Shown: positions 3,689-60,884 of the stretch, piece by piece | Position numbering within the stretch: the stretch's first letter is position 1 | How the letters are laid out: every line of letters starts with the position of its first letter | DNA from: Elusimicrobiota bacterium | Lineage (GTDB): Bacteria > Elusimicrobiota > Endomicrobiia > CG1-02-37-114 > XYA2-FULL-39-19 | Assembly: GCA_018816525.1 (NCBI GenBank) | Contig: JAHIVV010000012.1 | Coordinates: forward strand, 2,253-66,252 | Reading direction: 5' to 3' | DNA length: 64,000 nucleotides | Notes under the pieces: generated by a model | What the model saw: only the letters and a program-made list of their open reading frames with translations | The model's database searches: none | What the model was told of the DNA's origin: nothing | Program-made: the position numbers and the translations under genes

Positions 3689-3703
3689 TCAGCTGACTGG
3701 GTT

Positions 3704-6623: not shown

Positions 6624-6633
6624 ACTCTCCCTG

Positions 6634-6692
6634 CCTCTCTTTCACAAAGAGAGGGGACAAGGAGCTCTCTTCCCCTCTTTTTGAAAGAGGGG
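6634..6692 (+). promoter_or_regulatory. two tandem perfect palindromic hairpins between batB and batC
   Basis: cctctctttcacaaagagagg (6634-6654) and cccctctttttgaaagagggg (6672-6692), each a 9-bp stem with a 3-nt loop, sitting just upstream of the batC SD. Confidence 0.4.
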
Positions 6693-6713
6693 ATTTAGGG
6701 GAGTTAATAAAAT

Positions 6714-7412
6714 ATGAATAAATTAACCCTGACTTCTGTTTTAATTATTTTGAACTGCAGTATTATATTCGCCGGCGCTGGCAGCAGCGTGAACAAAGGG
6801 AATAAATTTTTTAGAAACAATCAGTTTAATGAAGCTCTTTCAGCCTATCAGAATGCCCAGATAAACGATCCCAGCTCACCAATAGTCAATTACAACATGG
6901 GAGATGCTTTATATAAGCTTGGCAGTTATGAAGATGCGCTGACCGAGTATAATAAAGCCCTCAAAATTAAGGACAAGAAAACTAAAAGCAAAATTTACTA
7001 CAATATAGGCAATACAATGTACCGCCTCCAGAAAAAAGACGAGGCGATTGCAAATTATAAGAAAACTTTGGAATTAAATTCTAAAGATGAAGATGCGAAG
7101 TATAACCTGCAATACCTTTTACAGGAGATGAAACAGCAAAAACAACAAAACAAGGACGGTAAAGACAACAAGGACAATAAAGACAAACAGAAACAACAGC
7201 AGGATCAGAAAAACCAGCAAAACAAACAGGATCAACAGAAACAGCAGCAGAAGCAGGCAGGGGAGAAGAAAGAAGAAAAGAAGAAGAAGTATATGTCAAA
7301 GGAAGATGTTGAGCGGCTTTTGCAGATGTCGAGAGAGCAGGAGAAGGAAGCGATGAAGAAGAAGATGAAGCAGGCGGCGCCGCAGCTTCCAAAACCCGAC
7401 GAAGACTGGTGA
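6714..7412 (+). CDS. batC: TPR-repeat protein BatC with K/Q-rich low-complexity tail
   Basis: Signal/TM N-terminus, TPR-like repeats (YYNMGDALYKLGSYEDALTEYNKALKI...), then a QQKQQNKD low-complexity region. Confidence 0.65.
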   Translation: MNKLTLTSVLIILNCSIIFAGAGSSVNKGNKFFRNNQFNEALSAYQNAQINDPSSPIVNYNMGDALYKLGSYEDALTEYNKALKIKDKKTKSKIYYNIGNTMYRLQKKDEAIANYKKTLELNSKDEDAKYNLQYLLQEMKQQKQQNKDGKDNKDNKDKQKQQQDQKNQQNKQDQQKQQQKQAGEKKEEKKKKYMSKEDVERLLQMSREQEKEAMKKKMKQAAPQLPKPDEDW

Positions 7413-7478
7413 AGACTGGTAAAGCGTGCTTGAGAAATCAGTTTTTTCACTCCCTTAGGTTTTTTTACGTTTAAAGTT

Positions 7479-9275
7479 ATGAAAAAGATTCTAATACTAA
7501 TAGCCATATTAGTTTTTGCATTTATTCAGGGTGCATATGCCCAGAATGTTAATATATCCGCTTCATTTGACAGGAATAGCGCCGCAGTCGGCGAGCAGAT
7601 TACGATGCAGATTTCGGTTTCCGGTGATACAAACGATATCCCCGAACCGAAGCTTCCGGGTATTCCGGATTTCAATGTATATTCTTCAGGAAGAAGCCAG
7701 AGCGTTTCAATTGTTAACGGAAAGATGTCTTCTTCCATTGCTTATAATTACGTTTTAAGCCCTACCAAGCCGGGTAAATTCACTATCGGTTCAGCAACCC
7801 TTGTTTATAAAGGACAGACCTATTCAACCCAGCCTGTAGAGATTACGGTTACTGCATCGCCACAGGCGGCTCCTGCGCAATTGCCTGCAGCTTCAGCGCA
7901 AAACCCGTCAGCGAGCCAGGCACAGCCTGCCGCAGCTTCAAGAGAACTTTTTGTTGAATCTTCGGTTGATAAAAAAACCGCGTATGTTAATGAGCAGATA
8001 ACTCTCAGTTTCAAATTTTTTCACCGGGTAAGCCTTCTTTCACAGCCTCAATACTCTCCGTCCGATACAACAGGTTTTCTCACGGAAGATTTGCCGCCGC
8101 AGAAAAATTACTATACCGATATTAACGGCCAGCGTTACCTTATTACAGAAGTAAAGACTGCTCTATTTGCTACATCAAAAGGCAGGTATACGGTTGGTTC
8201 GGCTCAGTTGAGATGTACAGTCAATGATAATGGGCAAGGCGGCGAAGATATTTTTAACCAGTTTTTCGGCGGGGGCAAGACGATAGTTTTGAAAAGCGAT
8301 CCAATTACTGTTGACGTAATTGATTTGCCGTCACAAAACAAACCTCAAAGTTTCACCGGGGCTGTAGGCAAGTTCAATATTTCAGCCAGCCTGGACAAAA
8401 GCCAGACAGAAACCAACCAACCAATTACTCTCAATGTGAAAATAAGCGGAAACGGGAGTATTAAAACAATTACTGAGCCTAAAGCGTCATTTCAGAATTT
8501 TAGAAAGTATGACACTATAACGTCGCTTAATATCGAAAAGCCAAATTATATAGTTTCCGGTTCGAAAGTTTTCAAAATTGTGCTTATGCCGCTGATTGCC
8601 GGCAATGTTACAATCCCGCCGGTAGAATTTACTTATTTTGACCTTGCGGAAAAAAACTACAAAACTATAAATACTCCAAGTTTAAGCGTTTCTGTCAAAC
8701 CCGGAACTTCTGCTCCGCCTCCTATGCCCGCGCTTTCTTCCGGCCAGGGAACCCAGGTGCTGTCGCAGGATATAAGGTATATTAAAACAAAATTATCCGG
8801 CGCGTTATCCTCTGCGCCTATTTATAAAAGCACTTTTTTATTTGCGTTGCAGTTTATTCCGGGTATTTTCTTTTTAATCTTCTGGAGATACAATACTTAC
8901 AGGCAAAACCTTTATAAGAATACCGGCCTCGTAAGGTTTACATTTGCTTATAAATCCGCGCTAAAGAAATTAAAAAAACTTAATCTTGAAATAGCCGCAT
9001 TGACGCCTGATAAAGTTTCCTCGCGGATATTCGATATATTATGTTCCTATCTGGCTGATAAATTTAATGTTTCTGCCTGCGGTATCATTTCAGAAGAGGT
9101 TAGGAAAAAACTGCAGGAGAAAAATGTAAACCCTGATGCTGTAGCAAAGATAGTAATTTTGTGGGAAGAATTGCAGTTTGTCCAGTATGCGCCTGCGCAG
9201 GCAACGCAGGATAAAGTCAACGAATTGCTGAATAATACAACTATAGTCCTGAAAGAACTGGAAAAAGAATTATGA
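7479..9275 (+). CDS. batD: BatD-like protein
   Basis: 598 aa with signal peptide, large periplasmic beta-rich region, TM segment and cytoplasmic tail. Position after batC. Confidence 0.6.
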   Translation: MKKILILIAILVFAFIQGAYAQNVNISASFDRNSAAVGEQITMQISVSGDTNDIPEPKLPGIPDFNVYSSGRSQSVSIVNGKMSSSIAYNYVLSPTKPGKFTIGSATLVYKGQTYSTQPVEITVTASPQAAPAQLPAASAQNPSASQAQPAAASRELFVESSVDKKTAYVNEQITLSFKFFHRVSLLSQPQYSPSDTTGFLTEDLPPQKNYYTDINGQRYLITEVKTALFATSKGRYTVGSAQLRCTVNDNGQGGEDIFNQFFGGGKTIVLKSDPITVDVIDLPSQNKPQSFTGAVGKFNISASLDKSQTETNQPITLNVKISGNGSIKTITEPKASFQNFRKYDTITSLNIEKPNYIVSGSKVFKIVLMPLIAGNVTIPPVEFTYFDLAEKNYKTINTPSLSVSVKPGTSAPPPMPALSSGQGTQVLSQDIRYIKTKLSGALSSAPIYKSTFLFALQFIPGIFFLIFWRYNTYRQNLYKNTGLVRFTFAYKSALKKLKKLNLEIAALTPDKVSSRIFDILCSYLADKFNVSACGIISEEVRKKLQEKNVNPDAVAKIVILWEELQFVQYAPAQATQDKVNELLNNTTIVLKELEKEL

Positions 9276-10039
9276 TAAAAAAACTTATATTTGTTATTTC
9301 TGTGCTCTTGTTGTCCTATCTAACTGCTTTTTCGGCAGAGGATATCTCAAAAGCCGTGAATGATTTATTTGTTCAGGCAAATAAGGCTTATGAACAGAAC
9401 AACTATGACCAGGCCATAGCTTTATACGAAAATGCGCTGGGCCGGTACAAAATCAACAATGACTCAATCTACTACAACCTGGGCAATTGCTATTACAGGA
9501 CCAATAAAATAGGCAAAGCTGTTCTGAACTATGAGCTTGCGCTGAAAATCAATCCGCGGGATGAAGATGCCAGGTATAACCTTAATTATATCAGGACGCT
9601 TATAAAAGATATCCAGGATACAAATTTCATTGACAAATTATATCTCCTGCTGACCGCAAATGAATTAGTCCTGATTACTTTATTCGTCAACATTTGTTTC
9701 TTTATATTTCTTTGGTTATTTGTGCATAAGAAGAATCCGGCATTAAAGCCTTATTGTTTATATATAGGAATTGCATTATTGGTGCTAGGTTTTTGGGCTT
9801 ATAATAGGGTAAAGGATGAAAAGAGAGTTTTTGCTGTTGTGATTACAACCCCCTGCGAAGTCCGCAGCGGCCCCGGCAAGGAATATACCGCGGGTTTGTC
9901 TGTCCAGGAAGGCAAGAAAGTTGAAATTTTAAGCCGGCAGGAAGATTGGTTTGCAGCCGGCCTTCATACCGAGAAATACAAAGGCTGGCTGGAAAAAGAA
10001 AAGGTAGAGCTGATCCTGTCAAGCCCTTTAAAAAGGTAA
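9272..10039 (+). CDS. batE: BatE-like TPR/SH3 domain protein
   Basis: TPR repeats, TM segments, C-terminal SH3b-like region (EDWFAAGLHTEKYKGWLEKE). Confidence 0.6.
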   Translation: MIKKLIFVISVLLLSYLTAFSAEDISKAVNDLFVQANKAYEQNNYDQAIALYENALGRYKINNDSIYYNLGNCYYRTNKIGKAVLNYELALKINPRDEDARYNLNYIRTLIKDIQDTNFIDKLYLLLTANELVLITLFVNICFFIFLWLFVHKKNPALKPYCLYIGIALLVLGFWAYNRVKDEKRVFAVVITTPCEVRSGPGKEYTAGLSVQEGKKVEILSRQEDWFAAGLHTEKYKGWLEKEKVELILSSPLKR

Positions 10040-12701: not shown

Positions 12702-13280
12702 TTGAAAAAACAAATTATTGAAATCAGATTACACGGCCGCGGCGGCCAGGGAGCTAAAACAGCCGCAGATTTGCTTGCTCTAACAGCCCTGGAAGCTGGT
12801 AAGCACATACAGTCGTTCCCAGAATATGGGCCGGAACGCGCTGGTGCGCCGATAAAAGCATTTGTCCGTATCAGCGACAAACCAATAGGCCTTCATTGCT
12901 CGGTTGTAAACCCGGATATCGTTGCGGTAATTGACCCGACGCTCCTGGGGATCAACCCTCCGGTAACAGAAGGTTTGACCAATGAAGGGATCCTGCTTGT
13001 AAATACCGATGAAAGCCCGGCAGACGTAAGAAAAAAACTCAATTTTAAAGAAGGCACAGTTTATACAGTTGACGCAACAAAAATTGCCCTGGAAGAAACA
13101 GGCATTTCTTTGCCTAATACCCCGATGCTGGGGGCAATTATCAAGGCAACGGGAATTGTTACAGTTGACGATTTAAAAAACCAGGTAAAGAAAAAACTCG
13201 GAAAAAAACTCAGCCCTGAAAAAATGGAAGGCAATTTCAGGGCTATTGACAGAGCTTATAACTCGATAACCAAAGGCTAA
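12702..13280 (+). CDS. porG: pyruvate:ferredoxin oxidoreductase gamma subunit
   Basis: IRLHGRGGQGAKTAADLLA N-terminus typical of 2-oxoacid:ferredoxin oxidoreductase gamma subunits. Confidence 0.85.
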   Translation: MKKQIIEIRLHGRGGQGAKTAADLLALTALEAGKHIQSFPEYGPERAGAPIKAFVRISDKPIGLHCSVVNPDIVAVIDPTLLGINPPVTEGLTNEGILLVNTDESPADVRKKLNFKEGTVYTVDATKIALEETGISLPNTPMLGAIIKATGIVTVDDLKNQVKKKLGKKLSPEKMEGNFRAIDRAYNSITKG

Positions 13281-13305
13281 TTTAAGGATTTAAAGGATCA
13301 TAAAA

Positions 13306-13581
13306 ATGGAACTAAAAAACTCAAGAGAAATACCGATAGGCGGCAAGATAACTGAAGCAGGAAACGCCGAGGAATACAATACGGGCGATTGGAGAACGTT
13401 TAAACCCGTTATTGACCAGAGCAAATGCACGAATTGTCTTTTTTGCTGGATGTATTGCCCGGATTCTTCAATCCTGATAAAGGATGCAAAAGTGACAGGA
13501 GTAGACTACAAACATTGTAAAGGGTGTGGAATTTGCGCTGAAGTATGCCCCAGAAAATGTATAAAAATGGAAAAAGGATAA
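13306..13581 (+). CDS. porD: pyruvate:ferredoxin oxidoreductase delta subunit (2x[4Fe-4S])
   Basis: CTNCLFCWMYCP and CKGCGICAEVCP motifs. Confidence 0.85.
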   Translation: MELKNSREIPIGGKITEAGNAEEYNTGDWRTFKPVIDQSKCTNCLFCWMYCPDSSILIKDAKVTGVDYKHCKGCGICAEVCPRKCIKMEKG

Positions 13582-13610: not shown

Positions 13611-14792
13611 ATGAAAATATTACCATTAACAGGAGACCAGGCAGCAGCGGAATCAATGAGGCAGATTAACCCGGATGTTGTCGCTGCATATCCCATTACG
13701 CCTCAAACAGAAATTGTTATGGTTTTTTCACAAATGGCTGCAAACGGCCTTGTGGACACGGAATTAATCCCGGTAGAAAGCGAACATTCTGCCATGAGCG
13801 CCTGTGTAGGATCATCTGCAAGCGGCGTTCGCACGATGACAGCCACTTCTTCACAAGGACTGGCATTAATGTGGGAAATACTTTACATTGCCGCTGGTTT
13901 ACGGCTTCCTATTGTAATGCATACCGTAAACAGGGCGCTTTCGGCTCCTATCAACATTCACGGCGATCATTCAGACGGCATGGGCGCAAGAGACAGCGGC
14001 TGGATACAGATTTACTGCGAAACAGGGCAGGAAGTTTATGAAATGGGAATTATGGCTATTAGAGTTGCGGAACATTCAGATATACTCCTTCCGATTATGG
14101 TCTGCCAGGACGGTTTCATAACCTCGCACGCAATTGAAGGCGTAAAAATACTTGATGATGCGGATGTAAAAAAATATATCGGCGAATACGTCCCGAAAGA
14201 CCCGCTCCTTGATGTAAATCATCCCGTTACTTACGGGCCGATAGATTTACAGGATTATTATTTCGAGCACAGATACCAGCAGGCAGAAGCTATGAGAACT
14301 GCAAAGAAGAAACTTCCGGAAATATTCGCGGAATTCAATAAGTTTTCTGGAAAAAATTACGATTTTATTGAAAAATATAAAATGGATGACGCAGAAGTTG
14401 CGATTTTTGCGCTTTCTTCAACATGCGGCACCACAAGAGTTGTCATCGACGACTTGCGCGAAAAAGGGATTAAGGTTGGAATGATAAAACTTACCGTTTT
14501 CCGTCCTTTCCCGATGGAAGAAGTTGCGGCAGCATGCAAGAATTTAAAAGCTCTGGCAGTTCTTGACAGGGCTGATTCGTGCGCAGCCCAGGGCGGTCCG
14601 GTATTCAATGATGTTTGTACAGCCATGTACACCCTTCTGGAAAAGAAAATCCCGACACTGAACTACATTTACGGTTTAGGCGGCAGAGATATTGATGAAG
14701 CGCAGATAAAAAACATTATCAATGAAACTCTAGAAGCGGCAAAAACAGGTAAAGTAAAGAAATTAATAAATTATTCAGGGGTGAGAATATAA
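13611..14792 (+). CDS. porA: pyruvate:ferredoxin oxidoreductase alpha subunit
   Basis: 393 aa, PFOR domain I/II-like sequence. Operon context. Confidence 0.85.
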   Translation: MKILPLTGDQAAAESMRQINPDVVAAYPITPQTEIVMVFSQMAANGLVDTELIPVESEHSAMSACVGSSASGVRTMTATSSQGLALMWEILYIAAGLRLPIVMHTVNRALSAPINIHGDHSDGMGARDSGWIQIYCETGQEVYEMGIMAIRVAEHSDILLPIMVCQDGFITSHAIEGVKILDDADVKKYIGEYVPKDPLLDVNHPVTYGPIDLQDYYFEHRYQQAEAMRTAKKKLPEIFAEFNKFSGKNYDFIEKYKMDDAEVAIFALSSTCGTTRVVIDDLREKGIKVGMIKLTVFRPFPMEEVAAACKNLKALAVLDRADSCAAQGGPVFNDVCTAMYTLLEKKIPTLNYIYGLGGRDIDEAQIKNIINETLEAAKTGKVKKLINYSGVRI

Positions 14793-15739
14793 TGGTCAAT
14801 ATAAAAGAATTATCACAGATTCCGGAGAGGCTTACAGGCGGGCATCGCCTTTGCGGCGGTTGCGGCGCAACAATTGCGGTCAGGCAGATTTTGATGGGAA
14901 CAAAAAACCCGGTTGTCGTAGGTTCTGCCACCGGTTGTTTGGAAGTATCAACAACAATTTATCCTTATTCGGCATGGAAGGTGCCTTTTATTCACAACGC
15001 TTTTGAAAACTCAGCGTCAAATATGAGCGGTGTTGAAACGGCATACAAAGCGATGAAGAAAAAAGGTAAAATCAAGGAAGATATTAAATTTTTGGCATTC
15101 GGCGGTGACGGCGGCACTTACGACATCGGTTTGCAGGCGCTCAGCGGAATGCTTGAAAGAGGCCACAATATACTTTATGTATGCTATAACAATGAAGCTT
15201 ACATGAATACAAGCGTCCAAAGAAGCGGCGCAACTCCTTATGGCGCTGATACAACAACATCTCCTGCAGGTAAAATCAAAGCCGGTAAAGACCGGATTAG
15301 AAAAGACCTTACTTCCATAGTAGCCGCGCATCATGTTCCATACGCAGCTCAGGCAACAATTTCCAACTGGAAAGACCTTGTTACAAAAGCGGAAAAAGCA
15401 TTTTCAACCGAAGGCCCTACGTTTATTAATGTGCTGGCGCCATGTTTCAGAGGCTGGAGATACCCGGCTGAAAAAACCGTTGAAATGTCAAAGCTTGCCG
15501 TCGAAACAGGTTACTGGCCTTTAATTGAAGTTGAAAACGGAGTTTGGAAATTTACATACAAACCGTCAGTAAGAAAACCCATAGCTGATTTTTTAAAGCC
15601 GCAGAGAAGGTTCGAGCACCTTTTCCAGGACAAGAACAAACACCTTTTAGATAAAATCCAGGAGCAGGTTGATGAACACTGGGCTTATCTTGAAAGGCTT
15701 ACGTCCGTTTCCTGTCTCGGAGAAGCGCCAGCTGTATGA
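14792..15739 (+). CDS. porB: pyruvate:ferredoxin oxidoreductase beta subunit (TPP-binding)
   Basis: GCGATIAVRQ Cys motif and TPP-binding GGDGGTYDIG motif. Confidence 0.9.
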   Translation: MVNIKELSQIPERLTGGHRLCGGCGATIAVRQILMGTKNPVVVGSATGCLEVSTTIYPYSAWKVPFIHNAFENSASNMSGVETAYKAMKKKGKIKEDIKFLAFGGDGGTYDIGLQALSGMLERGHNILYVCYNNEAYMNTSVQRSGATPYGADTTTSPAGKIKAGKDRIRKDLTSIVAAHHVPYAAQATISNWKDLVTKAEKAFSTEGPTFINVLAPCFRGWRYPAEKTVEMSKLAVETGYWPLIEVENGVWKFTYKPSVRKPIADFLKPQRRFEHLFQDKNKHLLDKIQEQVDEHWAYLERLTSVSCLGEAPAV

Positions 15740-16320
15740 AGCTGCTTGCAATTTACGGTAGTCCTAGAAAAGACGGCAATTCAGATATTTTATTGGATGA
15801 AGCCTGGAAGGGCGCTGGGATTACCGCAGAAAAAGTTTATATCCGGGATTTAGATATAAAACCCTGTACCGGGTGCAGGTCATGTGATTCGACAGGCAAA
15901 TGTATAATTTCGGATGACATGGCGCAATTGTATAAAAAAATTGAGGAGGCAGATAGAATAATTCTATCGTCTCCTATTTTTTTCTACGGCTTGCCGGGGA
16001 AATTAAAAGGAATGGCGGACCGCGCCCAATGTTACTGGGTGAGAAAATATAAACTTAAATCAGGCCAGCCCAGGGCTGGGAAATTTGACAGAAAGCTTGG
16101 TTCATTTATTTGTGTAGGAGCCACCGCAGGCGAAAAATTATTTGACGGGGTAAAACTCACGGTCAAATATTTTTATGATGTTTTCAATATAGAGTATTTT
16201 TCAGAGCTTTTAGTAAGAAAAGTAGACAACAAAGGGGATATTTTAGCTACCAATTCCCCGAAAGAAGCGCAAGAGCTTGGCAGAAAACTTTGTGAACCCG
16301 TCCATCCTTCCCATTCCTAA
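15736..16320 (+). CDS. NADPH-dependent FMN reductase-like iron-sulfur flavoprotein
   Basis: Flavodoxin-like N-terminus MKLLAIYGSPRKDGNS plus Cys cluster CTGCRSCDSTGKC (Isf-like). Confidence 0.7.
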   Translation: MKLLAIYGSPRKDGNSDILLDEAWKGAGITAEKVYIRDLDIKPCTGCRSCDSTGKCIISDDMAQLYKKIEEADRIILSSPIFFYGLPGKLKGMADRAQCYWVRKYKLKSGQPRAGKFDRKLGSFICVGATAGEKLFDGVKLTVKYFYDVFNIEYFSELLVRKVDNKGDILATNSPKEAQELGRKLCEPVHPSHS

Positions 16321-16376
16321 CTGGCTATAAATTTCAGAAGAGTTGGGCGAATCTTTTGTCCAGGCAGTGCATCTAA

Positions 16377-16886
16377 ATGAATGAAGATAAATTAGAAAAA
16401 AATACAGGCCAAAACGTAACAAGCCTTCAATTAGCTTCATCAGATGAAGAACTGGTTGAAAAGGCGCAAAATGGCGATAAACTTGCTTTTGAACAGCTTG
16501 TTATCAGGTATGAAAATAAGATTTATAATCTGATACTTCATTTGACGGGCAACCGTACTGTCGCAAAAGATATTTTACAGGAAACCTTTATCCAAGTATA
16601 CCGTTCTTTGAAGAATTTTAAGAGTAAATCAAAATTTTCAACCTGGCTTTATAAAATAACCGTGAATTACTGTTTGATGCATAGAAGAAAGAAAAAGATG
16701 ACAGTTTCGCTTGACGACTATTTAAAGACAGATAAAGACGAAATGCCCAGCCAGATAGCAGATTGGGCGGATATTCATACTTTAACAAAGACGGTTTCTT
16801 TGTGCAGAAGCATTGAAGTTGAAGAGGTGTCAGAAGAGGTGCATGAGGAATTTTGGCAGATAATAAGGATAGAAATAAGAAAATAA
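16377..16886 (+). CDS. ECF sigma-factor-like protein with region 2 only (no recognisable region 4 HTH)
   Basis: Sigma2 region (AFEQLVIRYENKIYNLILHLTGNRTVAKDILQETFIQVYRSL ... WLYKITVNYCLMHRRKK). C-terminal 60 aa are acidic and lack an HTH. Confidence 0.5.
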   Translation: MNEDKLEKNTGQNVTSLQLASSDEELVEKAQNGDKLAFEQLVIRYENKIYNLILHLTGNRTVAKDILQETFIQVYRSLKNFKSKSKFSTWLYKITVNYCLMHRRKKKMTVSLDDYLKTDKDEMPSQIADWADIHTLTKTVSLCRSIEVEEVSEEVHEEFWQIIRIEIRK

Positions 16887-16902
16887 ATTTGGGGGGTATA
16901 CT

Positions 16903-17223
16903 ATGTCCGAAGTGATCTTAAACGAACAAAATTTCAAGCCGGAAGTTTTAGACGCAAAAGGTATTGTGTTGGTGGATTTTTGGGCGGAATGGTGCGGGCC
17001 CTGCAAGATGATGTTTCCCGTTATTGAAGAACTTGCCAAAGAGTACGCAGGCAAGGCAAAAATCTGCAAGCTTAATGTTGATGAAAACCAGGAAATTGCT
17101 TCCCGGCATAGCGTTATGGCTATCCCAACCATAATCATATTCAAAGACGGCAAGCCGATGGAACGCGTTGTTGGTGCCCAGCAAAAAAAAGCCCTAGTAG
17201 AACGAATAAACTCCCTTCTTTAA
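16903..17223 (+). CDS. trxA: thioredoxin
   Basis: WAEWCGPCKMM active site, 106 aa. Confidence 0.9.
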   Translation: MSEVILNEQNFKPEVLDAKGIVLVDFWAEWCGPCKMMFPVIEELAKEYAGKAKICKLNVDENQEIASRHSVMAIPTIIIFKDGKPMERVVGAQQKKALVERINSLL

Positions 17224-18899
17224 TGTTCTAATTTCAGGGTGATTGTGGTTATATCCGCAACACTGGCGGGGCCGAAGTACTGAATAGGCCCGGGGAAAAT
17301 ATAACTTTCAGTGGCCGCCCAGTTTTCCCTGTTGTTTTGCAGGGTTTTAAAAGGCTTTCCGTTAAGGTCAACCAGCGCTTTTTGAATAACCGGTTTCTCT
17401 TTTCCTTTCCTTCTCTCAATATTCATCATCATAGTCAATGGCACGCCTCCGCACTCCCATTGGCTGGCAGGCTTGGTAAGCTTTCTTACTGATGAAAGAT
17501 ATCCTGTAAGCCCGTTCAGAGCAAGCACAGCCGCATTATAGCCCAGCGCATAAGTATAATTTGAATCAAAATTCGACGGCGCTCCGCAGCGCCCTTCATA
17601 ACCAAAGAAATGATTAATCGTTGAAAACTTGCCTGCATAAGCTCCTTCTTTTTTTAATGCTGAAAGCCTTGCTTTTACCATGCTAATAAGAAGCTTTTCA
17701 GTTTCAATCTGAGAAACCTGCACATTGCCGTGAGGGTCCCTGTCCAGCATCAACTGGGACGAAATACTATCCGGTAATGATTTCATTAGTTTAGAAAGCT
17801 TCTCGGGTAGTTTCGAACATACGAATATTTTTTTTTCCTCTAAAGATACCAGGCCATTTAACTGGGATTCATTATCAGCCAGAGTGTCATTCAAGGCTGA
17901 AATAAGTTCCTTCATTTCCGGAATAAATTCAATCAGCCCTTCAGGAACAAGCACCACGCCGAAATTCTTTTTAACTTCTGCGCGTTTAGCAACTATTCCG
18001 GCTATTGAATCAACCAGCTGGGAAAGCGTTAGATTATTTTCACGGACTTCTTCACCAATAAGACAGATGTTTGGCTGGGTTTTCAAACCTACTTCTAGCG
18101 CGATGTGGGAAGCGCTCCTGCCCATCAGGCGTATGAAATGCCAATATTTTCTAGCTGAGTTTACATCTCGGCAAATATTGCTTGTAAGTTCTGCGTAAAT
18201 TTTTGTGGCAGTATCAAACCCGAACGATGCTTCAATATGCTCATTTTTGAGGTCTCCGTCAATCGTTTTAGGAACTCCGATAACGCTGGTATTGAGGCCT
18301 TCTTTTTTAAAATATTCAGCAAGAAGCGCTGCATTAGTGTTTGAATCGTCGCCGCCAATTACAACAAGCGCGTCAATTTTGTTATCAATCAGCGTTTTCT
18401 TTGTTTGTTCAAGTTGTTCCGGAGTTTCTATTTTCGTTCTTCCGGACTGGATAATGTCAAAACCACCGGTGTTCCTGTAATCAGCAAGAAAGGGCGCGGT
18501 TATTTCCTTGAATTTGTTTTCTAAGATACCAGAAGGCCCTCCCAGGAAACCGATAAGTTTGTTTTTTTGATTTGCTTTTTTCAGGCTGTCAAAAAGGCCG
18601 GCTATTACATTGTGTCCGCCGGGTGCCTGTCCGCCGGAAAGCACAACTCCGATACTAACTGTTTTTTTTGCTATAGCAGGATTTTTACCTTTTACAAAAG
18701 CAACTACCGGCATGCCATAAGTATGAGGAAATAGCTTATTTACTGTTTCCTGGTCAGAAATGCTTTGGGTTGGTTTGCCTGATTTTGGTTTTACAGATAC
18801 GGGCCCGCCTTTTAAAGCTGATGGAAGCACGGGTTTAAATTTAAGCCTTTCAATTTGTAATTCAGAAATCTTTTGTTTAGCCATAGGACTCCTCTCCAC
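17220..18899 (-). CDS. pfp: pyrophosphate-dependent 6-phosphofructokinase (long form)
   Basis: 559 aa PFK-family sequence with GGDDS and PKTIDGD motifs, long N- and C-terminal extensions typical of PPi-PFK. Confidence 0.8.
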   Translation of the reverse strand: MERSPMAKQKISELQIERLKFKPVLPSALKGGPVSVKPKSGKPTQSISDQETVNKLFPHTYGMPVVAFVKGKNPAIAKKTVSIGVVLSGGQAPGGHNVIAGLFDSLKKANQKNKLIGFLGGPSGILENKFKEITAPFLADYRNTGGFDIIQSGRTKIETPEQLEQTKKTLIDNKIDALVVIGGDDSNTNAALLAEYFKKEGLNTSVIGVPKTIDGDLKNEHIEASFGFDTATKIYAELTSNICRDVNSARKYWHFIRLMGRSASHIALEVGLKTQPNICLIGEEVRENNLTLSQLVDSIAGIVAKRAEVKKNFGVVLVPEGLIEFIPEMKELISALNDTLADNESQLNGLVSLEEKKIFVCSKLPEKLSKLMKSLPDSISSQLMLDRDPHGNVQVSQIETEKLLISMVKARLSALKKEGAYAGKFSTINHFFGYEGRCGAPSNFDSNYTYALGYNAAVLALNGLTGYLSSVRKLTKPASQWECGGVPLTMMMNIERRKGKEKPVIQKALVDLNGKPFKTLQNNRENWAATESYIFPGPIQYFGPASVADITTITLKLEH

Positions 18900-18949
18900 C
18901 CGGCTATGTTCTCAAGCAGGGCTGTTTTTGTTTAATTACAATACCATTA

Positions 18950-19135
18950 TACCAAAATATTTTTTACTTTTTCTAATACCCGTTCTATATCAAAAGGCTT
19001 GGTTACATAATCAGTTGTATCGGGCCCAAGTGCCTTGTCAATAGCACCCGCAAGATTCTTTTGCAGCTTACAATTAAAATGGGTATTAAAACGGCAAGAG
19101 AAAATAAGGCGAGGATTTTTACTCTTAAAGAATGT
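18950..19135 (-). pseudogene. remnant of a CheY-like response-regulator receiver domain (C-terminal alpha4-beta5-alpha5 only)
   Basis: Minus-strand frame reads ...KLQKNLAGAIDKALGPDTTDYVTKPFDIERVLEKVKNILV* (stop at 18947-18949), carrying the receiver hallmark DY(V)TKPF. Only about 62 codons are open before an upstream stop, with no start codon; a full receiver needs about 115 aa. Confidence 0.4.
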
Positions 19136-19163
19136 TTAAATTTCACCCAGCCCTCTACTTAGG

Positions 19164-20543
19164 TTACTTGCAAACATATTCGGGAAAATATTTTTTTGAA
19201 ATTTCTGCCATTTCCGTATCGGAAATAGAAGTAACCCTGCCTTTAAGGTACTGATCGTCAATCCACTTTTTGATTTCTAAAAGCACAGGGCTATCTTTTT
19301 CTATTTTTTTATTTTTGGGCAGTTTTAAATGGTGGTTCAGCCAATAAGATATGCCGGAAACTCCTGATTTATCCGTAATGCCGACCTCAATCGGCCTTTT
19401 AAGAATCTTTTCGGTGTCAAATATAGTATAAATTTCCTTATTTTTCAATAAACCATCAGCATGTATTCCAGCAAAGGTTTTATTAAAATTTTCACCGACT
19501 AAAGGCTGATTGTGCGGGATTTTGTAACCGATTTCTTTTTCAAAATATTCTGCAATTTCCGTAATTACAGTTGTATCTATTCCATTTCTAGCGCCTCTTA
19601 AACCAATATACTCCATAATCAAGCCTTCGATAGGTGTATTGCCGGTTCTTTCTCCGATGCCTAACATTGAACCATTTGCTGAAGAGCAGCCATAAAGCCA
19701 GGCTGCAGTTGCATTGCTTACAGCCCGGTAAAAATCATTGTGGCCGTGCCATTCAAGCCATTCAGAGGGAACTTCCGCCAGGTGGGATAAACCATGGACG
19801 ATTCCGTGAACGCTTCTCGGCAGGGAAGCACCGGCGTGGATGACACCCAGGCCCAGCGTATCGCAAAGACGGATTTTAATTTTCATTTTTGCCTGTTTTG
19901 AAAGTTTCATAAGTTCTTCCGCGAAGGGGATAACGAAACCGTAAAAATCCGCCCGGGTAATATCTTCAAAGTGGCATCTGGGTATAATTCCCATTTCCAG
20001 CGCGGAACTGACGATTTTTAAATAGTCTGCCAGCGCCTGTTTTCTTGTTTTCTTGAGTTTTAAAAATATATGGTAGTCAGAGCACGATGTGAGAATTCCG
20101 GTTTCTTTTAAACCCAATTGTTTTATAAGCTTAAAATCATTTTCAGTAGCGCGGATCCAGCCGGTGATTTCCGGGTATTTGTAGCCTTTTGCAAGGCATT
20201 TTTCTATTGCTTCCCGGTCTCTCGGTGTATAGGGAAAAAATTCTGACTGTCTTATTATGCCTTTTTTGCCTCCCAGGCGGTGGAGCATGTCGTAGAGAGC
20301 TACAATCTGTTCAACTTTAAACGGAGCCATGCTTTGCTGGCCGTCACGGAAAGTTGTATCCGTAATCCAGATATTTTCAGGGGGATCCATCGGAACCAGC
20401 CGGTAATTGAATGTAATTTTCGGAACTTCGCCATAGGTAAAAACATCATGATAAAGTTTTGGTTCTTCAACATCCTGAAGCTGATAGTAAAACTCTGTCT
20501 GTTCCAGCGTGTTTTTGCGTTTATTAAATTTTATCATTTTCAT
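19164..20543 (-). CDS. DRE-TIM metallolyase of the isopropylmalate/homocitrate/Re-citrate synthase family
   Basis: ITDTTFRDGQQ substrate motif and HGHND metal-binding motif. About 70 aa N-terminal extension. Confidence 0.6.
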   Translation of the reverse strand: MKMIKFNKRKNTLEQTEFYYQLQDVEEPKLYHDVFTYGEVPKITFNYRLVPMDPPENIWITDTTFRDGQQSMAPFKVEQIVALYDMLHRLGGKKGIIRQSEFFPYTPRDREAIEKCLAKGYKYPEITGWIRATENDFKLIKQLGLKETGILTSCSDYHIFLKLKKTRKQALADYLKIVSSALEMGIIPRCHFEDITRADFYGFVIPFAEELMKLSKQAKMKIKIRLCDTLGLGVIHAGASLPRSVHGIVHGLSHLAEVPSEWLEWHGHNDFYRAVSNATAAWLYGCSSANGSMLGIGERTGNTPIEGLIMEYIGLRGARNGIDTTVITEIAEYFEKEIGYKIPHNQPLVGENFNKTFAGIHADGLLKNKEIYTIFDTEKILKRPIEVGITDKSGVSGISYWLNHHLKLPKNKKIEKDSPVLLEIKKWIDDQYLKGRVTSISDTEMAEISKKYFPEYVCK

Positions 20544-20590
20544 CCCCTTAACTGCTTAACAAAATATCATATTTTTAGAGCAAATTCAAA

Positions 20591-21784
20591 TTAGCGAACC
20601 GCGTTCGCGAACTTTTTGATTCTATCCAAGCCTTCAGAGATATTTTTGTCTGAAACAGCATAGGATAACCTTATCGCGTTGTCTTCGCCGAAAACACTTC
20701 CAGGGATCACTGCGACTTTTGCATTTTCCAGCAATAACTCTGTCAAAGCAAGCGAATTTCCTATGGTTTTACCGTTATAATTTTTTTTAAGCAGTTCTGA
20801 AATGTCAGGGAAAACATAAAAAGCGCCCTGCGGCTTCAGGCATTTTATTCCTTTTATTGAATTCAGGCCAGTAACCATTATATTTCTTCTTTTCACAAAT
20901 GCATCAAACATGATTTTGAAACTGTCCGCAGGCCCAGTTAATGCTTCTACTGCCGCCGCCTGGGAAATTGAAGCCGGGTTTGAAGTTGAGTGGTCCTGTA
21001 AGTTTGACATGGCCTGGATGATTTCTTTAGGGCCGGCACAGTAGCCGATTCTCCAGCCGGTCATAGAATGGGATTTTGAAACACCGTTAACAACCAGGGT
21101 AAGCCTTCGGATATTTTCATCAAAAGCCGCTATGCTTATATGTTTTTGATTGTCATAAACCAATTTTTCATAAATTTCATCGGAAATGCAGTAAATGTTT
21201 TTAGAGACAATAACTTTTGCCAAAGCTTTGAGTTCGGGTTCAGAATAAATCATTCCTGTAGGGTTTGAAGGTGAGTTTAAAATAAGGATTTTTGTTTTTG
21301 ATGTTATTGCTTTTTCAAGTTGTTCCGGAGTTATTTTAAAATTATTGTTTTGGGTTGTTTTTATAAATACAGGCCTGCCTCCGGCAGCGCGCACCATTTC
21401 AGGATAGCTGACCCAGTAGGGCGAGGGGATGATTGCTTCATCGCCGTCGTCGCACAAAGCGAAGATGATATTAAAAATGGAATGTTTTGCTCCGCAGGAT
21501 ACAAGTATTTGTTCAGGTGTATAATCCAGGTTGTTGTCATTTTTGAATTTTTTACAGACAGCTTCTTTTAGTTCTTTTGTTCCGGAAGTAGGCGTGTATT
21601 TTGTAAATCCCGAATCAATGGCTTTTTTTGCGGCTTCCTTTATGTTCGCCGGTGTATCAAAATCAGGCTCGCCTGCGCCAAAACCGATGACATTGATTCC
21701 TTCTGCTTTCATTTTGTTGGCTTTTGCCGTAATTGCAAGCGTAGGTGAAGGGCTGATTAAATTCATTCTTTTTGCTAAAACCAT
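20591..21784 (-). CDS. aspC: aspartate/aromatic aminotransferase (class I PLP)
   Basis: SKSHSMTGWRIGY PLP-lysine motif, 397 aa. Confidence 0.85.
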   Translation of the reverse strand: MVLAKRMNLISPSPTLAITAKANKMKAEGINVIGFGAGEPDFDTPANIKEAAKKAIDSGFTKYTPTSGTKELKEAVCKKFKNDNNLDYTPEQILVSCGAKHSIFNIIFALCDDGDEAIIPSPYWVSYPEMVRAAGGRPVFIKTTQNNNFKITPEQLEKAITSKTKILILNSPSNPTGMIYSEPELKALAKVIVSKNIYCISDEIYEKLVYDNQKHISIAAFDENIRRLTLVVNGVSKSHSMTGWRIGYCAGPKEIIQAMSNLQDHSTSNPASISQAAAVEALTGPADSFKIMFDAFVKRRNIMVTGLNSIKGIKCLKPQGAFYVFPDISELLKKNYNGKTIGNSLALTELLLENAKVAVIPGSVFGEDNAIRLSYAVSDKNISEGLDRIKKFANAVR

Positions 21785-25272: not shown

Positions 25273-26049
25273 TTAGTTTGTTTTTGTTGTTTTGAGAACT
25301 CTTGGTTCTGCAATATATTCTCTTGTCAGTTTGCTGGCCGCCGGTTTATCAACAATAATTGTTGTCCTGGGGTGCATCTGGACAACCGTAGCTGGTACCA
25401 TTGCAGTAATCGGTCCCTCAATTGCTTTTGAAATGGCGTCTGCTTTTGTTTCCTTATTCGCAAGCAGAATTAGTTCCCTTGCTTCAATGATTGTGCCGAT
25501 CCCCATTGTAATTGCATATTTAGGGACTTCATCCGAAGTTTTAAAGAATCTTGCATTGTCTTTGATTGTTTCTTTGGCGAGTGTTTTTATCCTGGTCCGT
25601 GACCCTAGCGATGAGCCCGGCTCATTAAATGCAATATGCCCGTTTCCGCCGATGCCTAAAAGTTGTACATCAATTCCGCCGGTTTTTATTATTTCATCCT
25701 CGTACCATTTGCAAAATGCAACGATATCCTTTGCAACGCCGTTGGGAGCGTGAATGGATTCTTTTCTTATGTTAATGTGTTTGAAAAGGTTTTCCCACAT
25801 GAAATAGTAACAACTCTGGTCGTGTTTAGGTTCCAGTCCTACGTATTCGTCAAGGTTGAAAGTTGAAACTTTCGACCAGTCAAGCCCTTCTTCTTTATGA
25901 AGCCTGATAAGTTCTTTGTAGGTCCCGATAGGAGTGCTGCCTGTGGGGAAACCAAGGACTGGTTTAGTTTTTGATTTAATGACATCTGCAATCATTTTTG
26001 CAGCCAGCTTGCTTATCTCATCGTAATCTTTTTTTACCACGACTTCCAT
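25273..26049 (-). CDS. nagB: glucosamine-6-phosphate deaminase
   Basis: GIGGNGHIAFNEPGSS active-site motif. Confidence 0.9.
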   Translation of the reverse strand: MEVVVKKDYDEISKLAAKMIADVIKSKTKPVLGFPTGSTPIGTYKELIRLHKEEGLDWSKVSTFNLDEYVGLEPKHDQSCYYFMWENLFKHINIRKESIHAPNGVAKDIVAFCKWYEDEIIKTGGIDVQLLGIGGNGHIAFNEPGSSLGSRTRIKTLAKETIKDNARFFKTSDEVPKYAITMGIGTIIEARELILLANKETKADAISKAIEGPITAMVPATVVQMHPRTTIIVDKPAASKLTREYIAEPRVLKTTKTN

Positions 26050-26061
26050 ATATTACCTCCT

Positions 26062-26100
26062 CAATACTCCGTGTTACTCGCTTGAAAGAGTACGGAGTAT
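26062..26100 (-). promoter_or_regulatory. conserved SD-adjacent hairpin element, copy A (nagB leader)
   Basis: mRNA sense ATACTCCGT-ACTCTTTCAAGCGAGT-AAC-ACGGAGTAT immediately 5' of GAGGAGGTAATATATG. Flanked by a 12-bp direct repeat ATATTACCTCCT (26050-26061 and 26099-26110). Confidence 0.5.
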
Positions 26101-26132
26101 ATTACCTCCTGGATACCCTAGTTTCGACCAAT

Positions 26133-26161
26133 ATATTATACTTAAAATCGACAAATGTCAA
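26133..26161 (-). promoter_or_regulatory. sigma70-type promoter for nagB
   Basis: Minus strand TTGACA (26156-26161), 17-nt spacer, TAATAT (26133-26138). Confidence 0.5.
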
Positions 26162-36426: not shown

Positions 36427-36912
36427 TTACAATTTTATTAGTTCAACTTTTTTGGAAGGAAGCTCCAATAGGGCTATTGTGGATTTTCCGGTAAGCCATC
36501 CGCCGCATTCACCCGGGTTGATTATAAGCGTTTTTCCGGTAGTTTTTATTTCCGGGTTGTGCGTGTGCCCGTAAATTATGATATCATTTTTCTGTGATGC
36601 TATTAAAGCGTCAATAGAATCGGGTTCATGCATTAACAAAACCTGCCGGCCGTCCAAGTTTGTTTCGTAATATTTGTCATGAATGGTCCCGATATCTTTA
36701 AATTTTTCTCTTAGCATCTTTTTATCGCCGTCATTATTTCCAAAAACAGCAACAAACTTTGATTTTAGGTTTTTGAATTCTTTAGAAGTAAAGGGAGAGA
36801 CAAAATCCCCTGCATGCAAAACAATGTCCACTTTTCTTTTATTAAAAACATCTACAGTTCTGGCAATTAAAGGCAAATTGTCGTGCGTGTCTGAGATAAC
36901 CCCAATTAACAT
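36427..36912 (-). CDS. YfcE/MJ0936-type metallophosphoesterase
   Basis: Motifs DTHDN, GDFV, GHTH. Confidence 0.8.
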   Translation of the reverse strand: MLIGVISDTHDNLPLIARTVDVFNKRKVDIVLHAGDFVSPFTSKEFKNLKSKFVAVFGNNDGDKKMLREKFKDIGTIHDKYYETNLDGRQVLLMHEPDSIDALIASQKNDIIIYGHTHNPEIKTTGKTLIINPGECGGWLTGKSTIALLELPSKKVELIKL

Positions 36913-36924
36913 TACAACCTCTTT

Positions 36925-36963
36925 AATACCCCGTGTTAGTCTCTTGGAAGACTATGGGGTATT
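36925..36963 (-). promoter_or_regulatory. conserved SD-adjacent hairpin element, copy B (intercistronic, upstream of the phosphoesterase gene)
   Basis: mRNA sense AATACCCC-AT-AGTCTTCCAAGAGACT-AACAC-GGGGTATT followed by AAAGAGGTTGTAATG. Confidence 0.5.
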
Positions 36964-36967
36964 CCCT

Positions 36968-37507
36968 TTATCTTCCGTAGAACTCGTAAATATCTATTCC
37001 GTTTTTATTAAAATGTTCAAAAAAGTGCATTAAGAGTTTTCGTGTTGTATACACATCTGCCAGTGCCCTGTGTTTGTTCTTTGGGTTAATCTTATAATAA
37101 TCCGCCAGGCTCTGCAGTTTGTTTGAAGGAAATTTAAAAAATTTCCTTGCCAGGAGCAGTGTGTCCATTACCGGGTTATCAGGAGCGGGTTTATTTAATA
37201 GTGAAAGCTCCTGCTGGAGGAATTTCATGTCAAACGGCACGTTGTGGCAGACAATTATTCTATCGGAAAATAATTCTAAAATATTATCCGCAAGGTCATG
37301 AAAACGGGGGGCATCTTTTACCATTTCGTCGGTTATTCTGTTTACCATGCTTGCTGCAGGGTGAATGGGCTGGAGGGGGTTAACCAGGCTCGAAAAGGAT
37401 TTCTTGATTTTGAAATTATCACAGCACAAGATGCCTATTTCGCAGATTCTATCCCCGTTTGTAGGGCTCAACCCGGTAGTTTCCACATCAAAAAACACCA
37501 TTTTCAT
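36968..37507 (-). CDS. DEDDh 3'-5' exonuclease (DNA polymerase III epsilon-like)
   Basis: Exo I motif FFDVETTGL and later DEDDh motifs. TATAAT box 7 nt upstream of the ATG suggests a leaderless transcript. Confidence 0.8.
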   Translation of the reverse strand: MKMVFFDVETTGLSPTNGDRICEIGILCCDNFKIKKSFSSLVNPLQPIHPAASMVNRITDEMVKDAPRFHDLADNILELFSDRIIVCHNVPFDMKFLQQELSLLNKPAPDNPVMDTLLLARKFFKFPSNKLQSLADYYKINPKNKHRALADVYTTRKLLMHFFEHFNKNGIDIYEFYGR

Positions 37508-47426: not shown

Positions 47427-47819
47427 TTGTTTTCTATGAAACAGTTTACTTTCCGTAAAGAGGAAAGGCTGCATTTTGATAAAGAGTTCAGGCGCATTTT
47501 CAAAAAAGGAATAGCGCTGCGCAATTCCGGCATTCTGATGTTCGCCTACAAGCGCAATGAACCTGCGGAAAGCAAAATAAAGAATACGCGTTTAGGTTTG
47601 GTTATTTCCCGAAAAGCGGGCAGGGCAGTTGACAGAAACAGGCTAAAGCGCCAATTGAGGGAAATTTTCAGGCTGAATAAGCATACCCTAAAGCAGGATT
47701 TTGACATTGTTTTCATGGCCAAGGAAAAACTTGCTTCCTTTAAATACGATAGGCTTCAAAATATTGTATTTAACCTGTGGCAGCGCGCGAAGGTGCTTGA
47801 GCAGCAGGGCACTCTTTAA
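47427..47819 (+). CDS. rnpA: ribonuclease P protein component
   Basis: RnpA signature. Immediately after rpmH as in most bacteria. Confidence 0.85.
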
Positions 47820-47842
47820 ACCGAAATTTATTTTTAAAATAT

Positions 47843-60102: not shown

Positions 60103-60816
60103 TTATTTTCGGGGTACCATAAAACTACCTACAAAATCAATAACTTTTTCAATCTCATTTAAATAAGAGTTGAACAAAACTTCTATCTCAACTTTTTGTG
60201 CCGCCTTGTCGCCTTCCTTAATTTTAGAAACAGTTATAAAAGGTTCAGTATTAATTCTTACCTGCTTGGATAACATGCTTAAAGCGTCAATTTTTTTCGG
60301 CGGCGGTACCTGGCCGGTTAAGCGTAGGACATTCCTGAAAAGAACAAGAAAAGTTGAAATTGAGTTTATCAACAATTCTTTGATTTCTGATTGTTTGCCT
60401 TTAGTTGCCATAAACTCTTGGCAAAGTTTGAGGTATTTGCTTTTAAGCTCGTGTTCGCACTCATGGCGCAGGTTTGAAGAAACAATTTCCATGTTAACAA
60501 AGGGGTTTTCGCCGTAAAGGATTTTGTGATGCTCTTTCATATCGAGGAATTCTATGGGAAAAACGTCAAATGATTCCTCGAATTGATTGCAGGTAAAGAT
60601 GACTGGTACAGAATTATTGCTTTTTATCCACTTGTTCACAGGTTTTTGAAGTAATTTTAGTTCAGTAAATCCAAAATTTTCCAATGTAAGCAGTAAATTA
60701 TAGTCAGAACGTTTTTTTACCGCCTCTCCGCTTGCCTGGGACCCGTAAAGTACTATTGATTTTAGGTTTGAACCCAGTGTGTTTTTTAGTTCTTCAACAA
60801 ATTTTGTAAGTTCCAT
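60103..60816 (-). CDS. nucleotidyltransferase-fold protein (minimal NTase with GS...D motif plus helical C-terminal domain)
   Basis: IVLYGSQASGEAVKKRSDYNLLL resembles the Pol-beta NTase hG[GS]x9-13Dh[DE]h motif with the second acidic residue replaced by N. Likely start is ATG 60814-60816 (SD AAAGAGGTG 4 nt upstream), not the TTG at 60837 used by the track. Confidence 0.4.
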   Translation of the reverse strand: MELTKFVEELKNTLGSNLKSIVLYGSQASGEAVKKRSDYNLLLTLENFGFTELKLLQKPVNKWIKSNNSVPVIFTCNQFEESFDVFPIEFLDMKEHHKILYGENPFVNMEIVSSNLRHECEHELKSKYLKLCQEFMATKGKQSEIKELLINSISTFLVLFRNVLRLTGQVPPPKKIDALSMLSKQVRINTEPFITVSKIKEGDKAAQKVEIEVLFNSYLNEIEKVIDFVGSFMVPRK

Positions 60817-60829
60817 TGTCACCTCTTTC

Positions 60830-60866
60830 ATACCCAATGCCAGTCGCTTGGAAGACTATTGGGTAT
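60830..60866 (-). promoter_or_regulatory. conserved SD-adjacent hairpin element, copy C (intercistronic, TPM to NTase gene)
   Basis: mRNA sense ATACCCAAT-AGTCTTCCAAGCGACT-GGC-ATTGGGTAT followed by GAAAGAGGTGACAATG. Confidence 0.5.
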
Positions 60867-60884
60867 ATTTTCCCCTCCATGTTT

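Follow-up and report, generated by a model that had tools for sequence, protein, structure and literature searches.

A hairpin repeat adjoining Shine-Dalgarno sequences in uncultured Elusimicrobiota, probably a REP-like insertion element

Small palindromic repeats are common in bacteria, where they usually lie behind genes, and their spread is poorly understood. The single-strand transposons of the IS200/IS605 type have hairpin-defined ends and insert in a strand- and orientation-specific manner by a short motif, without target duplication. Here we describe a 37-nt hairpin that occurs three times in a 64,000-nt stretch of DNA from an Elusimicrobiota bacterium (contig JAHIVV010000012.1, positions 2,253 to 66,252; this whole stretch is termed the window), each time just in front of a Shine-Dalgarno (SD) sequence, and at further sites in related metagenome contigs. 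We consider it probable that the hairpin is the main part of a non-autonomous insertion element of ∼48 nt, akin to repetitive extragenic palindromic (REP) sequences and miniature inverted-repeat transposable elements (MITEs), which is found in one orientation at the boundary between SD and spacer and supplies a working SD.

The nearest described kinds are the REPs with their REP-associated tyrosine transposases (RAYTs), the Neisseria repeat REP2 (CREN), the mycobacterial interspersed repetitive units (MIRUs) and the Rickettsia palindromic elements (RPEs) (PMC3184786). REPs, with their composite form the bacterial interspersed mosaic elements (BIMEs), are known from Escherichia coli, Pseudomonas and Stenotrophomonas (SMAG) as dispersed imperfect palindromes of 35–40 nt that are transcribed within mRNAs; they are thought to be non-autonomous, moved in trans by RAYT tyrosine transposases, and can affect mRNA stability (PMC3184786). 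Our hairpin resembles them as a dispersed imperfect palindrome (37 nt, 13 sites) whose stem is kept by compensation (10 of 13 pairs). Most REPs, however, stand downstream of genes or where two genes converge, frequently in inverted pairs (BIMEs), and they are unconnected with the SD; the hairpin copies are single, all in the orientation of the gene, and adjoin an SD. REPs also begin with an unpaired 5′ GTAG; the 5′ end of the hairpin is ATAC, GTAC, GCAC or ACAC and pairs with the 3′ end, so that the element ends are (A/G)TAC...GTA(T/C), and no RAYT gene is found near the copies.

Neisseria REP2 and the Borrelia IR repeat are dispersed just upstream of open reading frames (ORFs), supply the ribosome-binding site and have internal stem-loops (PMC3184786). 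The hairpin element shares this feature, as an SD follows its stem at 1–5 nt and its insertion into a flavodoxin gene, described below, brought the SD-bearing sequence TCACAAGGAGG. The Neisseria and Borrelia repeats are longer, carry a promoter and an ATG together with two stem-loops, and the genes they serve are co-regulated; our element is ∼48 nt, has one hairpin, stands before unrelated genes and is mostly intercistronic, and it carries no promoter, since the 11 of 13 copies that are intercistronic leave no room for one. MIRUs are units of 40–100 bp in operon gaps, co-oriented with the genes and with filled and empty sites between species (PMC3184786). They differ in encoding small ORFs that run into the stop and start codons of their neighbours and in having short direct repeats; a covarying, loop-conserved hairpin is not their defining trait. 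Full-text searches of the literature brought up nothing on the hairpin element; on our best reading the family has not been described before, although REP-like kinds are already known.

All three window copies lie on the minus strand and measure exactly 37 nt. Copy 1 (ATACTCCGTACTCTTTCAAGCGAGTAACACGGAGTAT, 26064..26100) stands in the short leader of nagB (PF01182, Glucosamine_iso; glucosamine-6-phosphate deaminase at NCBI), copy 2 (ATACCCCATAGTCTTCCAAGAGACTAACACGGGGTAT, 36926..36962) at the junction of an RNase_T exonuclease gene with a Metallophos_2 phosphoesterase gene, and copy 3 (ATACCCAATAGTCTTCCAAGCGACTGGCATTGGGTAT, 60830..60866) between a TPM-domain gene and a gene for a nucleotidyltransferase-domain protein. 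Copies 2 and 3 are intercistronic, with upstream stop codons 5 and 18 nt away. The first-pass annotation, made from the sequence alone, had located the three to within 1–2 nt and had put them directly 5′ of an SD and ATG, two of them between cistrons. This is indeed how they lie: in each, a single nucleotide separates the hairpin from GAGGAGG or AAAGAGG, and the ATG follows at +13 or +14. Together they form the top direct-repeat family (D1) of the window, and the exact 12-mer TCTTYCAAGNGA occurs in the window only at these hairpins. The covariance model, run over the 64 kb with filters off, finds them as the only significant matches (55–58 bits, E ∼1e-14 to 1e-16, with E ∼1e-14 for copy 1). 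A hairpin with ATAC...GTAT ends but an unrelated interior is also present within a DEAD-box helicase gene (54684-54729, plus strand; 9–11 bits, E ∼2–3); it is probably a chance resemblance.

Further copies were collected in two ways. A recruiting pattern that specified the fixed loop and three terminal bases found nine loci in Joint Genome Institute (JGI) metagenomes. Covariance-model searches of those loci and of relatives' contigs, as the first-pass annotation had proposed, added four copies that the pattern could not reach (L014b, L014c, L007b and L038). The family now stands at 12 distinct sequences at 13 distinct sites (alignment A5), all on Elusimicrobiota contigs. The same pattern gave no match in the GTDB species-representative genomes, among which the hairpin lineage evidently is not included, and none in viral contigs. 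A scan of genome contigs based on isoleucyl-tRNA synthetase (IleRS) reached only relatives ≤∼50% identical, with no hairpin copies. The hairpins match nothing in Rfam at the gathering score or even at E≤10, in keeping with the earlier remark that no known RNA family is recognisable in them.

Proteins of the window are identical to those of the metagenome-assembled genomes GCA_043819315.1 and GCA_018830695.1 (both ‘Elusimicrobiota bacterium’), and the nearest named relatives are Elusimicrobia RIFOXYB2_FULL_48_7 and RIFOXYA2_FULL_39_19. Copy density is three in the 64-kb window and one in 12.9 kb of RIFOXYB2_FULL_48_7-like sequence, while ∼137 kb from other relatives (L035, L040 and L045-L050) holds no copy. 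These data are best read as an element confined, with patchy distribution, to a subclade of uncultured groundwater Elusimicrobiota.

In the fold, an outer stem of 9 bp and an inner stem of 4 bp are separated by a 3-nt bulge on the 3′ strand, and a loop of 8 nt closes the hairpin; the predicted folding energy of the 37-mer is ∼−13 to −15 kcal/mol. The loop reads UUYCAAGM in the three window copies and UUCC(A/U)AGC across the family; it and the bulge, A(G/A)(C/A), are nearly constant. The stems are not. Among the window copies the outer stem varies as TCCGT/ACGGA, CCCAT/ACGGG and CCAAT/ATTGG and the inner stem as ACTC/GAGT or AGTC/GACT, so that 4 of the 13 pairs are altered on both sides, compensation of this kind having been noted in the first-pass annotation; copy 2 has a single A.C mismatch (pair 8-30). 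Across the 12 sequences, compensatory change is seen at 10 of the 13 base pairs and 96.2% of cells are paired. None of 500 shuffles reached the observed values, sliding the partners by 1–3 columns lowers pairing to 29–49%, and RNAalifold predicts the identical structure when the fold is not supplied. Selection on secondary structure, already suspected from the three copies, is thereby strongly supported. The loop with its flanking bases, CUUCC(A/U)AGCG, is kept in the four copies found by the model only, so that the search pattern does not by itself explain its conservation.

The placement noted for the window copies holds in full: at all 13 sites found the hairpin is in the sense orientation of the flanking gene and directly 5′ of its SD and ATG. 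The base of the stem is 1–5 nt from the SD, and the start codon comes 12–18 nt past the stem. Eleven sites are intercistronic; copy 1 lies in a leader, and the remaining site is within a coding sequence. At the intercistronic sites the upstream stop codon is 5–25 nt away, and because this distance varies while that to the SD is fixed, it is the ribosome-binding site that the hairpin goes with. Position-specific bases mark the left flank too, with G at −5/−4 in most copies and the consensus AAGG(A/G)AU; a second SD-like purine run, which the first-pass annotation had not noted, abuts the 5′ side of every hairpin (AGGAGGTAAT, AAAGGGA and GGAGGGGAAAAT in the window copies).

Nothing is shared by the genes downstream. 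Besides nagB and the phosphoesterase and nucleotidyltransferase genes they include cpaF, tadB, an ilvN-like gene for an acetolactate-synthase small subunit and flavodoxin, as well as genes for a NifU-like protein, a 44-residue Cys-rich peptide, a sugar-isomerase-like protein, a heptosyltransferase-like glycosyltransferase and NTP_transf_4. Functionally unrelated as they are, they argue against a regulon. This bears on the idea that a lineage-specific factor acting in trans uses the hairpin as its operator: an RNA-binding protein, or a nuclease, would read loop and bulge, perhaps in the way of coat-protein or Cas6-type hairpin recognition, and control the translation or cleavage of dispersed genes. 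Loop and bulge nearly constant between stems that vary by compensation, also in the model-only copies, would suit such a factor, and the placement is ideal to block or expose the SD. We nevertheless hold an operator of this kind to be quite improbable: no function is common to the downstream genes, the orthologous leaders of relatives lack the element, one copy lies in frame inside a coding sequence, and no candidate partner gene adjoins any copy. A transposase reading a DNA hairpin would, moreover, explain the conservation of loop and bulge equally well.

The evidence that the hairpin is the main part of an inserted unit comes from filled and empty orthologous sites, by which insertion elements are recognised and which we find at three places. 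The nagB leaders of the two closest relatives (NagB 81–83% identical) have an ordinary SD and ATG and no hairpin. The RNase_T/phosphoesterase junction, filled by copy 2 in the window, is empty in the RIFOXYA2_FULL_39_19 lineage, where it reads TAAtATG. The third site, in a flavodoxin gene, is the most precise, as the filled site (L009) and the empty one (L042) differ by exactly 48 nt, the 37-nt hairpin plus TCACAAGGAGG. The empty orthologue (P0123, locus L042:1245-1330) reads GCTAAAGAGGGGGC followed directly by GGGAAAAATGG, and the filled site GCTAAAGAGGGGGC, hairpin, TCACAAGGAGG and then AAAAAAAATGG; the left flank is identical in the two and no duplication is evident.

These sites bear on two statements of the first-pass annotation. 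Its view that the copies do not result from recent copy-paste holds insofar as the stems are kept by compensation; the units are insertions all the same, with filled and empty sites at three positions and a flanking duplication at copy 1. As for the two explanations it had offered, the structured mobile hairpin is favoured by the empty orthologous sites and the 48-nt insertion, and it speaks against a gene-specific cis-regulatory operator that the genes behind the copies have no function in common and that relatives have empty leaders at the orthologous positions.

The element is present in the flavodoxin genes of two Elusimicrobiota species (L009:3276-3893, plus strand; L011; L044). In L009 and L011 the hairpin is in frame, the ORF running from the signal peptide into the flavodoxin domain, and ∼16 residues (YPILFQASSMGYSQ...) are thereby added between the signal peptide MKIILSCLFAVSVLFQQNVYA and the domain; more distant flavodoxin homologues lack this 16-residue insert. 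The empty site is an SD look-alike, GAGGGGG with an ATG 8 nt later, and judging from its sequence the insertion point appears to be an SD/spacer boundary like that of genuine ribosome-binding sites. An in-frame palindromic repeat within a gene recalls the RPEs; these are 105–146 bp long and typically lie within coding sequences, whereas only 1 of the 13 hairpin sites does so. The clean 48-nt insertion would in turn fit transposition of the IS200/IS605 type, a family that has two different subterminal hairpins and inserts 3′ of a tetra- or pentanucleotide; the present element differs in its single hairpin, its SD-like apparent target, the 13-nt duplication at copy 1 and the lack of any TnpA seen.

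The flavodoxin gene is also a practical warning for annotation. Gene callers and NCBI begin it at the internal ATG behind the inserted SD (162 aa), and the annotated protein loses its signal peptide.

Two observations concern the extent of the mobile unit. The bulge AGA, C37 and the tail TCA(C/T/A) co-occur among copies, and the tail GAAAGAGGTAAC is common to copies at different genes in different genomes; we conclude that the SD-bearing tail travels with the hairpin. Likewise, the tail of copy 3, GAAAGAGGT(A/G)AC, is found on copies L014a and L015 of other genomes.

Copy 1 lies between two exact direct copies of a 13-nt sequence, AGGAGGTAATATA (26110-26098 and 26061-26049), a feature absent from the first-pass annotation. 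Its left flank (26098..26110, minus strand) consists of the SD-like AGGAGGTAAT and ATA, these final 3 nt being also the first 3 nt of the hairpin, and the flank-similarity score is 26 against a cross-copy mean of 10.4 (sd 2.4; z ∼6.6). The flanks of other copies are indistinguishable from the general SD-likeness of all flanks, and a uniform target-site duplication is unsupported once copy 1 is dropped (p=0.14). The fixed terminal inverted repeats and constant target duplication by which MITEs are defined are likewise not seen here: the arms covary, and the duplication is of 13, ∼8 or 0 nt.

An insertion element would spread through these genes as follows. It would enter between the resident SD and its spacer, stranding the old SD 5′ of the stem, and the 3′ SD, brought by the element or regenerated, would take over, such that translation of the downstream gene survives. 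In the mRNA, self-folding would conceal the pyrimidine-rich, anti-SD-like CUCUUCC and leave the ribosome-binding site as open as without the insertion. Unfolded, CUCUUCC would compete for the neighbouring SD, and the host would therefore have a reason of its own for compensatory evolution at each locus; such selection for stem integrity would add to any need for the hairpin in mobilisation. Mobilisation itself may occur in trans, through an enzyme that reads hairpin, loop and bulge, by analogy with REP/RAYT or with IS200/IS605 single-strand transposition. Transposition in those analogues would be strand-specific and beside a short target motif, with little or no target duplication. It is from such analogies that we infer the mechanism of spread.

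Several results weigh against an insertion element, or at least against a simple one. A Pfam search of all 63 ORFs of the 64-kb window showed no transposase or RAYT gene, nor did tblastn find a Y1 transposase or RAYT in the hairpin-bearing loci. The sample is small, and its nine recruited loci carry the bias of a pattern that fixes the loop. Flank duplication is uneven, being 13 nt at copy 1, ∼8 nt at L038 and absent at the flavodoxin site, and a permutation test for it gives p=0.017 with copy 1 and p=0.14 without. G.U (five) and A.C (four) wobble pairs are nearly equal in number and silent on the folding strand and on RNA versus single-stranded DNA. The orthologous flavodoxin copies of the two species have hairpins identical at 37/37 positions in a gene that is 80% identical overall and 61% at third codon positions (P ∼3e-4 under the rate of the gene as a whole). 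Either the copies are constrained where they stand, as by a host function, or sister copies have converted them, or a hot spot has been hit more than once; a decaying selfish relic is not what this points to. Finally, copies cluster. Three diverged copies occupy three consecutive intercistronic gaps of one oxidative-stress-type operon (L014:2559-3069, plus strand), whose order is Fur-family regulator, flavin reductase-rubredoxin fusion, NifU-like 73-aa protein, 44-aa Cys-rich peptide and next gene, an arrangement unlikely by chance if only ∼5% of genes carry a copy; L007 has two, preceding cpaF and tadB. Such clustering would agree with a host role as well as with local hopping.

The one RAYT-like Y1 transposase gene seen belongs to a hairpin-less relative, L040, where it (12983-13561) and a type I-E CRISPR-Cas locus (14024-20765) are just downstream of nagB.

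A host role is the substance of another explanation, in which the hairpin is a generic mRNA module kept beside the SD for expression of the downstream cistron; a useful unit would then spread, with mobility secondary. The fixed 1–5 nt to the SD against the variable 5–25 nt to the upstream stop agrees with this, as do the in-place conservation of the flavodoxin hairpin, the series of junctions in the L014 operon and the SD being unpaired in predicted folds. We consider it unlikely, since the same genes lack the hairpin in close relatives, as do most genes of the window itself (3 of ∼63 have one), and since predicted accessibility is no better with the hairpin than with it deleted. The last point rests on a calculation, for the 13 copies, of how likely positions −13 to +3 relative to the ATG are to be unpaired. 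In minimum-energy and centroid folds the SD, 1–5 nt outside the stem, is predicted to be unpaired; the predicted probability averages 0.61 whether the hairpin is present or deleted and falls to 0.50 when its 37 nt are scrambled (Wilcoxon p=0.0002). Self-folding is therefore neutral for the ribosome-binding site and no improvement. An SD-sequestering riboswitch or RNA thermometer is rejected on the same figures, the SD being unpaired and as accessible as in the hairpin-deleted construct.

How a host module would act can be pictured in two ways, neither of which we think likely: a protective 5′ stem-loop, exposed by endonucleolytic processing in the purine-rich 5′ flank, or insulation from upstream folding and terminating ribosomes. 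In either case the likeness would be one of working only, to 5′ stem-loop mRNA stabilisers, the intercistronic RNase III hairpins of phage T7 and synthetic ribosome-binding-site insulators. All place a stable hairpin 5′ of a single-stranded SD, but they are single-locus features and not a dispersed insertional family. A classical RNase III substrate would be longer than this bulged helix of 13 bp. Returning to the insertion element, it may bring the host an added benefit, such as a protective or insulating 5′ hairpin.

We also give some tentative room to a stronger form of the insertion hypothesis. The element may home to SD-like DNA and deliver a hairpin and a fresh SD, as a selfish element that does translation no harm, or it may have become a domesticated portable initiation module that a lineage-specific factor reads through the invariant loop and bulge. 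The in-frame flavodoxin insertion, at a look-alike of SD plus ATG, would exemplify the recognition of SD-like DNA in the homing version.

A peptide reading of the hairpin deserves mention because the frame with UAC as codon 2 is open through it. A mini-ORF or leader peptide (e.g. MYPILFQASSMGY*) could act by translational coupling, as in bicistronic designs. An ATG stands directly in front of the hairpin in L007a, L010 and L014c, a stop codon falls within three codons past it in seven copies, and four or five others are in frame with the downstream ATG. Yet most copies, all three in the window included, have no start codon at that place (ATA or GAA), the stop is no more than the UAA within the extended SD UAAGGAGG, and the gap between the supposed SD and its start codon would be only 0–2 nt. 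Nor is the peptide conserved (MHLIRFLARSIRC in L014c), and substitutions are RNA-compensatory rather than synonymous. The chance of a translated mini-ORF thus seems very slight, and we take the leader peptide as nearly excluded.

Other candidates were tried and rejected. The unit is not an intrinsic terminator or attenuator, its stem being followed by UGAGGAGG, UAAAGAGG or GAAAGAGG in place of a U tract, and the terminator scan not reporting it. It is not a K-turn (the strand 3′ of the bulge begins AC or AU, not GA) or a tRNA-like minihelix or T-loop RNase P substrate (whose bulge would be in the opposite strand; here C-G is the closing pair, and NCCA is lacking). A pseudoknot between loop and SD is precluded by geometry, both purine runs being at the foot of a 13-bp helix and the loop out of reach, and a guide function of the loop by the presence of a complementary GGAA in only 4–5 of 13 left flanks. 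The operator of a dimeric transcription factor would retain a single sequence, whereas the arms covary. Copies sit in housekeeping operons, not as expected of a solitary CRISPR repeat. An integron attC site is excluded by the same kind of location (inside ilvB-ilvN and cpaF-tadB) and by the ends, which are ATAC...GTAT with no RYYYAAC...GTTRRRY cores.

The remaining parts of the window sites, all on the minus strand, are as follows. Copy 1 is followed at 26047..26063 by T, the working SD GAGGAGG, the spacer TAATAT and the nagB ATG. A consensus scan found a promoter-like TTGACA-17-TAATAT at 26133..26161 (10 of 12 consensus matches), from which the nagB transcript would start ∼25 nt 5′ of the hairpin. 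The left flank of copy 2 (36963..36970) is the stop codon TAA of the upstream gene with an SD-like AGGGA, and its tail (36910..36925) is T, the SD AAAGAGG, TTGTA and the phosphoesterase ATG. For copy 3 the left flank is the SD-like GGAGGGGAAAAT (60867..60878), the TPM gene ending with its stop codon at 60885-60887, and the tail (60814..60829) is G, the SD AAAGAGG, TGACA and ATG. Lying as it does, the hairpin unit is necessarily transcribed together with its gene.

Directly upstream of copy 3, the glycine-rich tail of the TPM-domain protein (GGRGGGGGFGGGGGWGGFGGGSSGGGGASRGW) is encoded by tandem-like repeats of 12–15 nt (family D12; 60888-61000, minus strand). On the opposite strand, ∼200 nt from the start of the TPM-domain gene, lies a c-di-GMP-I riboswitch aptamer (RF01051, 61.4 bits; 61876-61973, plus strand), the only Rfam match in the window. 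Elsewhere on the plus strand are a complete aerotolerance-type Bat/MoxR operon (1813-10036; MoxR AAA_3, DUF58, BatA, VWA protein, TPR, BatD and TPR), whose paralogous VWA genes are reflected in the repeat pair 5000-5069 / 5992-6061, and an rnpA-yidC-jag(KhpB)-mnmE cluster (47427-51802), an arrangement typical of the region around the replication origin. Cumulative GC skew climbs over the entire window with no switch, and all three hairpins and their genes are on the C-rich strand.

A tiny, gene-oriented and SD-locked repeat that replaces the site it displaces would explain how the most sensitive nucleotides of an operon can be colonised harmlessly, and it would be the natural counterpart of the hairpin insulators of synthetic biology. 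With clean filled and empty sites, the uncultured Elusimicrobiota offer a compact test case for how REP-like hairpins move. The family poses a second question, whether stem compensation is driven by the element or by the host in keeping its ribosome-binding site open. Should the stronger hypothesis be true, either of its forms would constitute a class of mobile DNA for which the translation signal itself marks the target.

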